This document shows, in pieces, positions 1 to 35,309 of a DNA stretch of 64,000 nucleotides. Source of the DNA: Escherichia phage JY01. Within the stretch, counting starts at the first letter, position 1. Each line of letters starts with the position of its first letter. The translations under genes were made by a program, and so were the position numbers. The stretch lies in sequence record OR995200.1. The stretch is one strand, 5' to 3'. The notes beneath the pieces are model-generated. The model had not been told where the DNA came from and searched no databases. It worked only from the letters and a program-made list of their open reading frames with translations.

Positions 1-1836
<1,836 letters not shown>

Positions 1837-1864: not shown

Positions 1865-3844
1865 ATGACTTTATTATCTCCGGGCATTGAGCTCAAAGAA
1901 ACTACGGTTCAAAGCACCGTGGTTAATAACTCTACTGGTACAGCAGCTTTGGCCGGTAAATTCCAGTGGGGTCCTGCTTTTCAGATTAAACAGGTTACAA
2001 ATGAAGTAGATTTAGTTAATACTTTTGGTCAACCAACCGCTGAAACTGCTGACTATTTTATGTCTGCGATGAATTTCTTGCAGTACGGAAATGACTTACG
2101 AGTAGTTCGTGCTGTTGATAGAGATACCGCTAAAAACTCATCGCCAATTGCTGGTAATATTGAATACACAATTTCTACCCCAGGTAGTAACTATGCAGTT
2201 GGAGATAAAATCACGGTCAAATATGTTTCAGATGATATTGAAACTGAAGGTAAAATTACTGAAGTAGACGCAGATGGAAAAATTAAGAAAATTAATATTC
2301 CTACTGCAAAAATTATCGCTAAAGCTAAAGAAGTTGGCGAATACCCAACATTAGGTTCTAACTGGACTGCAGAAATTTCTTCATCTTCTTCCGGTTTAGC
2401 TGCAGTAATAACTCTTGGAAAAATTATTACTGATTCCGGTATTTTATTAGCTGAAATCGAGAGCGCTGAAACTGCTATGACAGCAGTTGATTTTCAGGCA
2501 AATCTTGAAAAATATGGAATTCCAGGAGTAGTAGCTCTCTATCCAGGCGAATTAGGCGATAAAATTGAAATTGAAATCGTATCTAAAGCTGACTATGCGA
2601 AAGGCGCTTCTGCATTACTGCCAATTTATCCAGGTGGTGGTACTCGTGCATCTACTGCCAAGGCAGTATTTGGATATGGACCGCAGACTGACTCACAGTA
2701 CGCTATTATAGTTCGTCGAAATGATGCTATTGTTCAAAGCGTTGTTCTTTCAACTAAGCGTGGTGAAAAAGATATTTACGATAGTAACATCTATATCGAT
2801 GACTTTTTCGCAAAAGGTGGTTCAGAATATATTTTTGCAACTGCACAAAACTGGCCAGAAGGATTCTCTGGAATTTTAACTCTTTCTGGTGGATTATCAT
2901 CAAATGCTGAAGTAACAGCAGGAGATTTGATGGAAGCTTGGGACTTCTTTGCTGATCGCGAATCTGTAGATGTTCAGCTTTTTATTGCTGGTTCTTGTGC
3001 CGGTGAATCTCTTGAAACAGCATCTACTGTCCAAAAACACGTCGTTTCAATTGGTGATGCTCGCCAGGATTGCTTAGTATTGTGCTCACCACCGCGTGAA
3101 ACTGTAGTTGGAATTCCTGTAACCCGTGCTGTTGACAACTTAGTCAATTGGAGAACTGCCGCAGGTTCATATACTGATAATAACTTTAATATTAGTTCAA
3201 CCTACGCAGCAATTGATGGTAACTACAAATATCAGTATGACAAATATAATGATGTGAATCGTTGGGTTCCATTAGCAGCTGATATTGCTGGTTTATGCGC
3301 AAGAACTGATAACGTATCTCAGACTTGGATGTCACCAGCTGGTTATAATCGTGGCCAGATTCTTAACGTTATTAAACTTGCTATTGAAACTCGCCAGGCA
3401 CAACGTGACCGCTTATATCAAGAAGCTATCAACCCAGTAACTGGTACAGGTGGTGATGGTTACGTATTGTATGGTGATAAAACAGCTACTTCTGTTCCTT
3501 CTCCATTTGATCGTATTAACGTTCGTCGTCTGTTTAATATGTTGAAAACGAATATCGGACGTAGTTCAAAATATCGTTTGTTCGAATTAAACAACGCGTT
3601 TACTCGTTCTTCATTCCGTACAGAAACTGCTCAGTACTTGCAAGGAATTAAAGCTCTTGGCGGAATTTATGAATATCGTGTAGTTTGCGATACAACAAAT
3701 AACACTCCGTCAGTAATTGATAGAAATGAGTTTGTTGCAACATTCTACATCCAACCGGCTAGAAGCATTAACTACATTACCTTAAACTTCGTAGCAACTG
3801 CTACTGGTGCAGATTTCGATGAGTTAACTGGTCTTGCTGGTTAA
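1865..3844 (+). CDS. 18: contractile tail sheath protein gp18
   Basis: 659 aa, same length and N-terminus as T4 gp18 as I recall it; late promoter TATAAATA 30 bp upstream. Confidence 0.95.
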   Translation: MTLLSPGIELKETTVQSTVVNNSTGTAALAGKFQWGPAFQIKQVTNEVDLVNTFGQPTAETADYFMSAMNFLQYGNDLRVVRAVDRDTAKNSSPIAGNIEYTISTPGSNYAVGDKITVKYVSDDIETEGKITEVDADGKIKKINIPTAKIIAKAKEVGEYPTLGSNWTAEISSSSSGLAAVITLGKIITDSGILLAEIESAETAMTAVDFQANLEKYGIPGVVALYPGELGDKIEIEIVSKADYAKGASALLPIYPGGGTRASTAKAVFGYGPQTDSQYAIIVRRNDAIVQSVVLSTKRGEKDIYDSNIYIDDFFAKGGSEYIFATAQNWPEGFSGILTLSGGLSSNAEVTAGDLMEAWDFFADRESVDVQLFIAGSCAGESLETASTVQKHVVSIGDARQDCLVLCSPPRETVVGIPVTRAVDNLVNWRTAAGSYTDNNFNISSTYAAIDGNYKYQYDKYNDVNRWVPLAADIAGLCARTDNVSQTWMSPAGYNRGQILNVIKLAIETRQAQRDRLYQEAINPVTGTGGDGYVLYGDKTATSVPSPFDRINVRRLFNMLKTNIGRSSKYRLFELNNAFTRSSFRTETAQYLQGIKALGGIYEYRVVCDTTNNTPSVIDRNEFVATFYIQPARSINYITLNFVATATGADFDELTGLAG

Positions 3845-6346: not shown

Positions 6347-6771
6347 TGATTCTAATCCCTGAAACTCATGAATTAGTTCTCGAGAATGTCGAAGCACTTA
6401 TTCCTGAAGCACAGGGTCGCTTTGACGAGTTGTCTTCTGCTTTAAATAAAGACGATATAAATAAAATTATCGAGAATATGCTTGATGATGAAACTGATTT
6501 AGCGGTTGCATTAGCTTCTATTAATGAAAATATGCCGTTAAATGAATTTATCGTTAAACATGTTTCTGCCCGTGGTGAAATTACTCGCACTAAAGATCGC
6601 AAAACCCGCGAACGTAATGCATTTCAAACTACCGGGTTGTCTAAAGCAAAACGTAGACAAATTGCTCGTAAAGCTACCAAAACGAAGATTGCCAATCCAG
6701 CAGGTCAATCTCGTGCTCAGCGTAAGCGTAAAAAAGCTCTTAAACGCCGTAAAGCATTAGGATTAAGCTAA
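6346..6771 (+). CDS. 68: prohead core protein gp68
   Basis: 141 aa, basic C-terminus; position between 67 and 21. Confidence 0.85.
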
Positions 6772-7409
6772 TGAATGAACCCCAATTGCTAATTGAAACT
6801 TGGGGTCAACCTGGCGAAATTATTGATGGTGTGCCAATGCTTGAATCCCATGATGGGAAAGACTTAGGTTTAAAACCTGGTTTATACATCGAAGGAATAT
6901 TCATGCAAGCAGAAGTCGTCAATAGAAATAAACGTCTTTATCCAAAACGTATATTAGAAAAAGCGGTAAAAGACTATATTAATGAGCAAGTTTTAACTAA
7001 ACAAGCTCTCGGAGAATTAAATCATCCTCCACGCGCTAATGTTGACCCGATGCAAGCCGCTATCATTATAGAAGATATGTGGTGGAAAGGAAATGACGTA
7101 TACGGACGAGCTCGTGTTATTGAAGGTGACCATGGTCCTGGAGATAAATTAGCAGCTAATATTCGTGCCGGATGGATTCCAGGAGTTTCTTCTCGTGGAT
7201 TAGGTTCATTGACTGACACAAATAAAGGTTATCGTATCGTAAACGAAGGATTCAAATTAACTGTAGGTGTTGATGCAGTATGGGGTCCAAGTGCTCCAGA
7301 TGCATGGGTAACTCCTAAGGAAATTACCGAATCACAGACGGCGGAAGCCGATACAAGTGCCGATGACGCCTATATGGCTCTCGCAGAGGCCATGAAAAAA
7401 GCGTTATAA
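6771..7409 (+). CDS. 21: prohead core protease gp21
   Basis: 212 aa, T4 gp21 length and position. Confidence 0.92.
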   Translation: MNEPQLLIETWGQPGEIIDGVPMLESHDGKDLGLKPGLYIEGIFMQAEVVNRNKRLYPKRILEKAVKDYINEQVLTKQALGELNHPPRANVDPMQAAIIIEDMWWKGNDVYGRARVIEGDHGPGDKLAANIRAGWIPGVSSRGLGSLTDTNKGYRIVNEGFKLTVGVDAVWGPSAPDAWVTPKEITESQTAEADTSADDAYMALAEAMKKAL

Positions 7410-34057: not shown

Positions 34058-34390
34058 TTATTTTACTACTTTCCAATGCTGCATGTCAAGTTTACCAACT
34101 TTTTTCATCTTCTCAATCAAACGTTCGGCACGTTGGCGAGCTGTAACATAATACCATTCACCTAATTCATTTTGTTCAATTTTTCCAACGATTACTGTAT
34201 TCAATTCATAAATCCAACCAGTAAAGAAATTATGAACTTGAATTGTAAAGGTGAAATCTGTTCCCATACCTTCTGTTGTTTCTACTTCAATAATATCACC
34301 TTCAACTGCCATTAAGAACCACATAGTTTCATCATATTTACCATTGAAGCATTTAGTTTTAACTGCAGCGTTCAGATTAATCGTTTTCAT
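34058..34390 (-). CDS. hypothetical protein
   Basis: 110-aa ORF with AAGGAGAA SD; early promoter upstream. Confidence 0.55.
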   Translation of the reverse strand: MKTINLNAAVKTKCFNGKYDETMWFLMAVEGDIIEVETTEGMGTDFTFTIQVHNFFTGWIYELNTVIVGKIEQNELGEWYYVTARQRAERLIEKMKKVGKLDMQHWKVVK

Positions 34391-34418
34391 TTTATTCTCC
34401 TTTGTTTGTGTAAGATAA

Positions 34419-34448
34419 TACTATCACAAAGGAACCATACTGTAAACA
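34419..34448 (-). promoter_or_regulatory. early promoter candidate
   Basis: minus strand: GTTTAC - 18 nt - TAGTAT, upstream of the 110-aa ORF. Confidence 0.4.
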
Positions 34449-34477
34449 ACTTTATGCAATCTTTGGAAAATAAAAAA

Positions 34478-34495
34478 GGACTCCCGAAGGAGTCC
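34478..34495 (-). terminator. rho-independent terminator after the 58-aa basic ORF
   Basis: minus strand GGACTCC-TTCG-GGAGTCC followed by TTTTTTATTTTCC. Confidence 0.65.
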
Positions 34496-34500
34496 TCAAC

Positions 34501-34677
34501 TTATGCTTTCTGCTTACCAAAACGAGAAGCATCATCTCGAAGAACCGCACGTGCTCGGCGCATGATCTTCTCAACAGTTTGATTGATACGAGAGTTCGAC
34601 CCACGCTTGTAGCCAGCGCGTTTAGAATCACCAACTTTCTTTTCAACTGCTTTCTTTGCTTTAGCTTGTTTTGCCAT
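34501..34677 (-). CDS. small highly basic protein (58 aa)
   Basis: MAKQAKAKKAVEKK...; start at the internal ATG with an AAGAG SD; followed by a strong terminator. Confidence 0.5.
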   Translation of the reverse strand: MAKQAKAKKAVEKKVGDSKRAGYKRGSNSRINQTVEKIMRRARAVLRDDASRFGKQKA

Positions 34678-34921
34678 TATAAATTCTCTTTTAAATGAAA
34701 ATGCAGGACTTATTGGCATTGCCTGCGCAAGCCCTCAAGGGGAACGTAGGTTTTTGGATATTTAACGACCAGGATAACCATAAACCCGTCATCATTCACA
34801 TTCAAGAGGTACACCGTAAAACTGCCGGGGTCTTAAAACTATAATGATTCGCAAATCATTAATCAGACAGTTCGACGGCTCCTCGATTTAGCTCACACTA
34901 AGGCAGTGAATCTCCAATAAA

Positions 34922-35170
34922 TTACTTCAATGTTACCACAAAGTGACGAACTGCTTTTCGCGCAGCAGAAGCCAAAGGCTTAGCATATTTAAGTTCATCT
35001 TTTTCCTGAAGCTCAGCAGCTAATGCAGTTTGAGTAGGATTCAGATGTTTGAAATAACGCAGGATTTCAAGAGCTTCGGCTTCAACATCAATAGATGCGC
35101 CATAGTTTTCGTGACCATTATTCCATGCGTTTCGTTGCAGTTCAAGAGCGTGTTGTAATTGTTTAATCAT
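34922..35170 (-). CDS. rIII: rIII lysis-inhibition accessory protein
   Basis: 82 aa, position between gene 31 and the 30.x block as in T4. Confidence 0.8.
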   Translation of the reverse strand: MIKQLQHALELQRNAWNNGHENYGASIDVEAEALEILRYFKHLNPTQTALAAELQEKDELKYAKPLASAARKAVRHFVVTLK

Positions 35171-35309
35171 TTAAAAATTCTCGTTAGAGATTAAAACTCG
35201 GTAGTCACGTTCTTCTGAATTTCATCTTCTTTCGACAGATCTCTCAGTTGTAGACTACCACATAGAATTGTTCGGTTAACTTATTATTCCGACACCCAAT
35301 TCATATTAT

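Follow-up and report, generated by a model that had tools for sequence, protein, structure and literature searches.

Conserved RNA folds, including a pseudoknot, in the spacer between rIII and gene 30.9 of T4-like phages

What occupies the long gap between genes rIII and 30.9 of T4-type phages? In Escherichia phage JY01 (OR995200.1) the gap measures exactly 244 bp (34678-34921; positions refer to the window, the 64-kb stretch of this genome that was analysed). The window belongs to a T4-type (Tequatrovirus) genome in which the genes lie on the minus strand. A sequence-only reading had singled out the gap as an unusually long, GC-rich spacer and had proposed a structured 5' leader, a small RNA or a remnant of horizontally acquired DNA. 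The unusual length was confirmed. The gap in T4 (NC_000866, 130541-130784) is identical in length and is the largest in the surrounding 6 kb, where neighbouring gaps have 41, 68, 110, 147 and 56 bp. T4 GenBank records carry no annotated regulatory features at the spacer, and no RNA at the rIII-30.9 locus is described in the literature that we searched.

The gap is densely filled with folds of a minus-strand RNA. Six modules tile nearly all of 34684-34910; read along the sense (minus) strand, they are X, L, K, G, H and S. The element is a phage intercistronic structured RNA, and its pseudoknot (K) has not previously been described. The explanation which we favour, with slightly better than even confidence, is that this RNA serves as 3' untranslated region (3'UTR) of rIII and as leader of 30.9, that its folds are under selection, and that K is a protein-binding site which tunes 30.9.

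Structured modules of the spacer

The following features were defined, all on the minus strand:

34909-34921, minus strand: UUUAUUGGAGAUU, the first 13 nt past the rIII stop codon
34892-34910, minus strand: module X, a hairpin UCAC-UGCCUUAGU-GUGA with a conserved 9-nt loop (minimum free energy -3.1 kcal/mol)
34802-34886, minus strand: module L, an 85-nt compound hairpin with four helices, P1-P4 (from covariation and RNAfold)
34842-34861, minus strand: P4, a perfect 8-bp hairpin, the UNCG-capped tip of L (from the sequence and compensatory variants)
34797-34798, minus strand: junction of L and K, an indel hot spot; modules B or M are inserted exactly here in sister phages
34741-34797, minus strand: module K, an H-type pseudoknot of about 57 nt (from a covariance model and covariation)
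34728-34745, minus strand: module G, a hairpin GUUCCCCUUGAGGGCUUG (from stem variants across genera)
34703-34726, minus strand: module H, a terminator-like hairpin GCAGG...CCUGC, followed by AUUUUCAUUU
34684-34701, minus strand: module S, a weak and tentative hairpin AUUUUC/GAGAAU over the Shine-Dalgarno sequence of 30.9

Module L is built from P1 (UCGAGG/UCUUGA), P2 (CCGU/ACGG), P3 (CUGUC/GGCAG) and P4 (UAAUGAUU-UGCG-AAUCAUUA). The last of these is the perfect hairpin that had been noted on the plus strand, where it is indeed present as TAATGATT-CGCA-AATCATTA; read on the sense strand, it has a tetraloop of the UNCG type. In an alignment of 15 distinct L sequences, 98.5% of the cells are paired and seven of the 23 pairs have changed on both sides. 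Covariation amounts to 0.193 compared to 0.111 upon shuffling (0 of 500), and controls with slid partners stay at or below 0.075. Unconstrained RNAfold recovered P2-P4, with P1 shifted by about two bases (GAGG/CCUC). Even near-identical relatives of T4 show stepwise exchanges in one helix (CCGU/ACGG, CCGU/AUGG, CCAU/AUGG), while phage VR7 has CCAC/GUGG and UUAUC/GAUAA. For P4, compensatory variants occur in phages A7_1 (UAGUGAUU-UACG-GAUCACUA) and HX01 (UAUCGAUU-UGCG-AAUCGGUA). The 3' arm of L contains a -35 box of the T4 early type, TTTACG, and each variant of this box (TTTACG, TTTATG or TTTGTG) has its counterpart on the opposite arm.

In module K, helix S1 pairs GAC(G)GG with CC(UG)GUC, while in S2 the loop of S1 pairs with downstream bases, which in T4 is restricted to GGUU/AACC. 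The single strands GUUAUCC, CGUUAAAUAUCCAAAAAC and, at the 5' end, (G/U)AUGAUG are conserved. Over 31 distinct sequences, 85.1% of the cells are paired (70.4% upon shuffling), covariation is 0.388 (0.162 upon shuffling, 0 of 500; slid controls at most 0.128), and both sides have changed in 4 of 6 pairs of S1 and 4 of 9 pairs of S2; these measures are inflated, as the alignments are model-fitted and the sequences phylogenetically related. A covariance model of K (R1) has a single match in the window (61.3 bits, E = 7e-15) and one in each related locus. Scans of IMG/VR with loose K patterns returned mostly chance matches; of the 82 loci obtained with the second pattern, the model recognised only 3 as true K.

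For the smaller modules X, G and H, the support consists of stem variants that change in step, covariation statistics having been computed for L and K. The stem of X co-varies across genera (UGC/GCA, CAC/GUG, CGC/GCG, AGC/GCU) around a loop UACCAAAGU or UGCCUUAGU. Stem variants of G across genera are CCC/GGG, CCUC/GAGG, GCC/GGC and GCU/AGC; G is found 3' of K in T4 and directly after the rIII stop codon in some genera. A hairpin is present at the position of H in every genus, with unrelated stem sequences (GGGAGC/GCUCCC, GAGAG/CUCUC, AACUGG/CCAGUU and others), and in the sampled spacers it always precedes the start of 30.9. Module S occurs in three co-varying types, UUUUC/GAGAA, UCUCC/GGA(A)GA and CCUC/GAGG. 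A long-range pairing of X with H, suggested by RNAfold, was rejected because the VR7-type X is unable to pair with the same H.

Several observations assign the folds to one strand. The spacer as a whole folds better in sense (-66.4 kcal/mol, z = -2.45) than in antisense orientation (-54.1 kcal/mol, z = -1.45), UNCG and GNRA loops are confined to the minus strand, and there are invariant G.U pairs in L (alignment columns 6-95 and 9-92) and in K (16-57). The structures therefore belong to a minus-strand RNA; they fit neither DNA nor an antisense transcript.

The region is present in 956 phage records (megablast). We assembled 76 rIII-to-30.9 spacers from IMG/VR, metagenomes and GenBank (50 unique, 120-416 nt) and added five further GenBank phages. 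Compared to the T4-type window, spacer and rIII are 97.6% and 85.1% identical in RB69, 93.4% and 86.3% in HX01, 88.7% and 83.9% in VR7, and 86.0% and 72.8% in STML-198. By these figures, the spacer, where alignable, is more conserved than the rIII coding sequence. The comparison with homologues that had been suggested, including the rIII-30.9 junction of T4, thus returned a gap of the same 244 bp in T4 and, across T4-like genera, conservation with compensatory changes. K occurs once in every complete spacer of this set (the 50 unique ones and the five GenBank phages), whatever the order of the modules, and is always linked to 30.9 in the sampled Tevenvirinae spacers.

Gene 30.9 and a putative leader

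The spacer lies between these features:

34922-35170, minus strand: rIII, 82 amino acids (open reading frame and translation), the upstream gene, of which the spacer is the 3' flank; same position in T4
34501-34677, minus strand: gene 30.9, an open reading frame (ORF) for a very basic protein of 58 amino acids, which follows K in the sampled Tevenvirinae spacers
34476-34497, minus strand: strong intrinsic terminator GGACUCC-UUCG-GGAGUCC followed by a U run, which ends the transcription unit (terminator scan)

The product of rIII matches PHROG 1457 ('lysis inhibition accessory protein', E = 9e-44). We infer that the spacer is transcribed as 3'UTR of rIII and leader of 30.9. Transcripts from upstream of rIII would read through the spacer, and the hairpins L, with its UNCG-capped tip, and H would act as barriers or partial terminators, setting how much transcript reaches 30.9 and shielding processed ends. 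K would be a specific protein-binding site, possibly for gp30.9 itself or for a factor of translation or RNA decay. K and the weak hairpin over the Shine-Dalgarno sequence might jointly tune translation of 30.9, in a manner that would resemble the gene 32 pseudoknot, which nucleates autoregulation. At the DNA level, the 3' arm of L may be a degraded promoter-terminator cassette of the PeSL type, which is taken up below.

The closest analogue is the pseudoknot operator of gene 32 (PMC3014915); autoregulation by gp30.9 would be a putative function. Both are H-type pseudoknots in a T4-type mRNA leader, and the downstream protein looks nucleic-acid-binding in both cases. The distances to the start codon are similar, with 67 nt for gene 32 and 63 nt from the end of K (34741) to the AUG of 30.9 (34677), and both helices of K co-vary. 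However, the two are unrelated in sequence, the K model having only one site in the window. The tract between the gene 32 pseudoknot and its ribosome binding site (RBS) is unstructured and A+U-rich, whereas the hairpins G and H fold the corresponding tract here. The distance between K and the start codon varies greatly between genera, and K is also found without a downstream gene.

A number of points weigh against a leader with a K operator. The stretch from K to the RBS is structured, unlike that of gene 32 (PMC3014915), and K is separated from H and the 30.9 start by anything from about 5 to about 230 nt with shuffled module order, an uncommon arrangement for an operator. Unrelated phages have K in their tRNA arrays in the absence of 30.9. 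Helix S2 has just 4 bp in T4, and the covariation of K is subject to the inflation mentioned above. H is not a canonical terminator: neither H nor P4 was called by the terminator scan, whose calls were limited to the terminator downstream of 30.9 and a single site within the coding sequence of 30.9, and the stem of P4 is A+U-rich while the U tract after H is interrupted. S is a weak hairpin, with predicted energies of just -0.7 to -6.5 kcal/mol. When sequestration of the Shine-Dalgarno sequence was tested by folding, it was found in 19 of 32 sequences, which is not separated from chance (control fraction 0.6).

The search for a function of gp30.9 (Pfam, PHROGs, PDB sequences, AlphaFold2 with Foldseek) gave no clue. 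The protein belongs to no Pfam family and matches PHROG 1427, a group of unknown function; AlphaFold2 predicts two helices (predicted local distance difference test, pLDDT, of 79), for which no Foldseek or PDB match was obtained. Between genera, gp30.9 is conserved far above rIII, with 96.6% versus 66.7% amino acid identity between T4 and Kosakonia-type phages. This suggests either strong constraint on gp30.9 or exchange of a block made up of K, H and 30.9.

On the minus strand of the spacer there are two GGAG motifs, the recognition sequence of the endoribonuclease RegB:

34909-34914, minus strand: GGAG motif in UUGGAGAUU, directly after the rIII stop codon
34880-34883, minus strand: GGAG motif in CGAGGAGCC, at the base of module L

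The RIII protein has been reported to bind ribosomal protein S1 and to inhibit the S1-dependent activation of RNase RegB (PMC9409239).

Module shuffling and pseudoknot copies outside T4-like phages

Sister phages differ from the window by additional modules and by module order. Tequatroviruses of the slur14 type have about 154 extra bases at 34797/34798, and those of the G9062 type have about 45. For 180 of 993 records, coverage of the 398-nt form of slur14 reaches 80% or more, which needs part of the extra bases. T4 and the window, which lack B, are a deletion form. The elements concerned are:

34797/34798 of the window, minus strand: insertion site of module B (about 135-154 nt) or module M (about 45 nt), from an alignment of the window, T4, slur14, G9062 and phi92
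slur14 locus, about 906-1040, minus strand: module B, about 135 nt of multi-helix RNA that has a closing stem of its own (alignment fold)

The order is X-L-K-G-H in T4, X-L-B-K-G-H in slur14, B-K-G-H in the Kosakonia and Cronus types, and K-X-B-G-H in Klebsiella Jiaodavirus; G-B-K-H, G-K-H and K-H are also found. K is the only module common to all orders. B can lie on either side of K, 5' or 3', depending on the genus, and is 91-96% identical between T4-like phages of E. coli and Klebsiella. Its alignment fold has 44 predicted pairs, 23 of them with compensatory changes, and its closing stem co-varies. It has no match in Rfam. A conserved 3' 20-mer of B, which with two degenerate positions fits every variant collected, was found in IMG/VR only in contigs assigned to T4-like genomes, 19 of the 20 contigs having 165-178 kb. 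Of all elements at the locus, B is possibly the most novel.

Modules also occur in phages that are not T4-like:

phi92 locus 3009-3348: T4-derived insert at the 5' end of tRNA-Gln; the empty site is at about 345-375 of the locus of phage inny
A7_1 locus, about 1493-1640, minus strand: copy of L and K with all helices kept via compensatory changes
L098, 6797-6851, minus strand: K, filling almost exactly a 58-nt gap between tRNA-Asp (6855-6929) and tRNA-Pro (6720-6796)

L098 is an uncultivated low-GC phage of 55 kb (IMGVR_UViG_3300020045_002265) with no close relative among cultured phages; its K (50.6 bits) is part of an array of 12 tRNAs. Just upstream of this array, L098 codes for a 473-aa DUF2828/DUF7788 protein (PHROG 850, labelled 'RNA-binding protein'). 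Weaker K-like matches (33-35 bits) were obtained in other non-coding regions of two further sequences (L141 and L159), in L141 at 222 nt after tRNA-Ile.

These copies lead to the main alternative to a leader, namely that K is a stable small RNA in its own right, alone or together with L (in sister phages also with B). It would be cut from the rIII-30.9 transcript or from tRNA precursors and would serve in trans as a decoy or sponge, 30.9 being a mere neighbour. Its target would be a host or phage protein of translation, RNA decay or defence. We consider such an autonomous RNA a tentative possibility. Module shuffling speaks for it, as folds are kept while the order changes and B has its own co-varying closing stem, and so do the copies in tRNA arrays. 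In L098, tRNA processing would release an RNA of about 55 nt. K is found near tRNA-Met in six Vequintavirinae (the A7_1 group), between tRNA-Gly and tRNA-Gln in 17 Justusliebigvirus records, and near tRNA-Ile in L141. The copy of the A7_1 group, located in non-coding DNA upstream of tRNA-Met, shares only about 87% identity with the T4 type, yet all helices are kept or improved. T4 itself already makes stable RNAs of unknown role beside its tRNAs, rnaC and rnaD (PMC3014915). On the other hand, the phi92 copy is a recent transfer (97% identity) that drags along a piece of rIII and may be a passenger. The copies in A7_1 and L098 possibly come from unsampled T4-like donors and need not be maintained by selection; the K core of L098 is 91% identical to the CC31-type K. 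Also, tRNA arrays are simply the largest insertion-tolerant non-coding regions of those genomes, and K is never found in the tRNA cluster of Tevenvirinae. The proposal of a structured 5' leader or small RNA, acting in cis or in trans, is borne out in its general form by conserved sense-strand structure with compensatory changes.

The RNAs rnaC and rnaD (species 1 and 2) are small structured phage RNAs, co-transcribed and processed with tRNAs (PMC3014915), and K resembles them in its location in or next to the tRNA arrays of L098 and of A7_1-type and phi92-type phages. They differ in size (139 and 119 nt versus about 57 nt for the pseudoknotted K), and K lies outside the tRNA cluster in T4-like phages. 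A likeness in sequence was also tried and rejected, the best match of the K model in the T4 tRNA region having E = 0.31.

In a bolder version, which we hold to be rather unlikely, K would be the founding member of an undescribed class of pseudoknotted phage RNAs that has moved among at least four unrelated lineages (Tevenvirinae, Vequintavirinae, Justusliebigvirus and the uncultivated low-GC phage). Such RNAs would be processed from mRNA or tRNA precursors and, in trans, would affect the translation or RNA-decay machinery of the host or a defence system.

The Justusliebigvirus copy has a peculiar structure. In phi92 and 16 other records of this genus, a T4-derived insert of 332 bp (97% identical) is integrated between tRNA-Gly and tRNA-Gln; other Justusliebigvirus records lack it. 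The insert is circularly permuted, in that the spacer is followed by the ATG of 30.9, which is in frame with the last 27 codons of rIII (junction ATAATGG|AAAAAGATG). It is flanked by a 13-bp direct repeat, TTTATTGGAGATT, which is also present after the rIII stop codon of T4 and at the empty site of phage inny. In Justusliebigvirus, UUUAUUGGAGAUU consists of the leader together with the first 8 nt of tRNA-Gln, and it flanks both ends of the insert in phi92. This looks like the footprint expected of a small circle that was integrated by recombination at the 13-bp identity. Four 'Campylobacter phage' records (A150, A145, C3 and A110a, each about 146 kb) are 97% identical to phi92 in this region, including the insert, and their host label looks doubtful.

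A degraded promoter cassette and the remaining alternatives

PeSLs (promoter-early stem-loops), which consist of a stem-loop followed by an early promoter (T4/PST consensus TTTACW-N17-TAYWAT), lie at indel hot spots, occur in degraded forms and are a source of small circular DNAs (PMC2839356, PMC4122927). A class with intact -35 box and stem-loop, having no -10 box, has been described near indels (PMC4122927). The window fits this class, since P4 is located 24 nt upstream of TTTACG, the 17-nt spacing is followed by GAATGA, and no promoter was called by the scan of the spacer. A complete site is present in a relative:

G9062 locus 937-965, minus strand: early-promoter-like site TTTACA-17-TACTAT, with TG, across the junction of L and M

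Relatives of the M type may thus express M-K-G-H-30.9 from a promoter of their own, and the window, having lost the -10 box, is at most a degraded half PeSL. Such a degraded form of L would account for the indel hot spot at 34797/34798, where B and M are inserted in sister phages and to which the deletions, including the deletion form of T4, map.

It could be argued that the spacer is mainly such a DNA-level relic, a degraded PeSL cassette with indel debris, and that its folds are incidental or ordinary terminators. The published half-PeSL class, the intact promoter-like site in M-type relatives, the polymorphism of the locus for B, M and deletions, and the circularly permuted phi92 copy, which is the footprint expected of PeSL mini-circles (PMC2839356), are in favour of this view. 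We nevertheless consider it improbable. Debris would not exceed the adjacent coding gene in conservation, nor would it show compensatory changes in the very helices which hold the -35 box (TTTACG, TTTATG, TTTGTG). K, G and X are conserved across genera although they are neither promoter nor terminator elements. The PeSL reading does not explain these, nor the co-variation of the -35-containing helices. While PeSLs end straight in a Shine-Dalgarno sequence and start codon, here about 120 nt of conserved RNA modules (K, G, H and S) intervene before the ATG of 30.9. The hairpin is an 85-nt structure of four helices, of which the outer ones contain the -35 box and co-vary. The circle of phi92 had its junction between the start of 30.9 and the interior of rIII and not between two PeSLs. 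PeSLs are multi-copy; spacer segments have no repeat copies elsewhere in the window beyond 13-mers at the sequence level, although PeSLs are defined by motif and no motif census was made. A repeated element within the window was likewise rejected as an explanation of the spacer.

Other suggestions of the sequence-only reading fared less well. The spacer is only weakly GC-rich (0.406 compared to a mean of 0.362, standard deviation 0.041, for 244-bp windows); the excess is marginal, as 13.5% of such windows equal or exceed it, and nearby 200-bp windows go up to 0.45. Nor could the idea of horizontally acquired DNA be upheld. No similarity to the spacer, and so no sign of a host or plasmid origin, was found in 5,426 complete E. 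coli genomes and 72,556 plasmids, the modules are ancestral to T4-like phages, and the GC argument is weak. The locus is itself a hot spot of cassette gain and loss and a donor of DNA to other phage families. The absence of tRNA-like features was correctly noted: ARAGORN found no tRNA or tmRNA gene in the window or in the slur14 and G9062 loci, and a tRNA-like reading was discarded. The proposed Rfam/Infernal check returned no family. There was no sense-strand match of the spacer in Rfam 15 (cmscan of 34300-35300, E up to 10), and the longer spacers of slur14 and G9062 had none at E up to 1. Weak matches to Atu_C8 (31 bits at a gathering score of 50) and Phe-leader are just the terminator hairpin after 30.9.

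Small two-helix H-type pseudoknots in which an A-rich loop crosses the first helix are known from preQ1-I/II, SAM-II and fluoride aptamers. K belongs to the same size class, shares their topology and A-rich third loop and has highly conserved single strands, and a hairpin and an occluded RBS follow downstream. K (or B) could thus be a riboswitch aptamer that senses a small molecule and acts on 30.9 via H and the hairpin over the Shine-Dalgarno sequence. This is highly improbable. No Rfam family matches even at E = 10, and there is no fixed expression platform, K not being consistently adjacent to H or the RBS. Between tRNA genes K has nothing to regulate, and the regulated gene would code for a tiny basic protein without a metabolic link. 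The features of type III toxin-antitoxin systems (tandem pseudoknot repeats and an endoribonuclease toxin of about 170 aa) are also lacking, as K is single-copy and the downstream protein has 58 aa and no family.

That the gap codes for small proteins is virtually precluded: the two 34-codon ORFs of the window, and the ORFs of 55-62 codons annotated in relatives, are inconsistent in frame and length among slur14, G9062 and T4, single-base indels (CCTGGTCG vs CCTGTCG; AAAAACC vs AAAACC) break the frames between phages with 98-99% identical rIII, so that the gap is not coding, and variation falls on paired sites rather than third codon positions. The earlier statement that there is no plausible sense-strand ORF was therefore essentially right, the two existing ones being:

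34691-34795, minus (sense) strand: 34-codon ORF with ATG start (ORF list)
34710-34814, minus (sense) strand: 34-codon ORF with GTG start (ORF list)

Several GenBank genomes label the spacer as 'hypothetical protein' or even as '1,4-alpha-glucan (glycogen) branching enzyme, GH-13-type'. Such protein labels in current genome annotations are wrong and appear to be a propagated mis-annotation.

According to a review of 2010, no riboswitch or trans-acting small RNA of T4 had been functionally characterised, and the gene 32 pseudoknot was maybe the only viral case used for translational autoregulation (PMC3014915). No lytic phage has been studied more thoroughly than T4, and an unannotated, strongly conserved pseudoknot and an 85-nt compound hairpin adjoin its rIII gene, upstream of a linked tiny basic protein, gp30.9. 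The insert in phi92 is an apparent natural case of a small circular DNA having passed from one phage family to another, a mini-circle process that had so far been proposed from PCR evidence only (PMC2839356). The pseudoknot also lies among tRNA genes in phages unrelated to T4, which is indicative of an autonomous RNA. If K represents an RNA class of its own, accompanied by B, the rIII-30.9 spacer would be a small non-coding-RNA locus of the T4 family.

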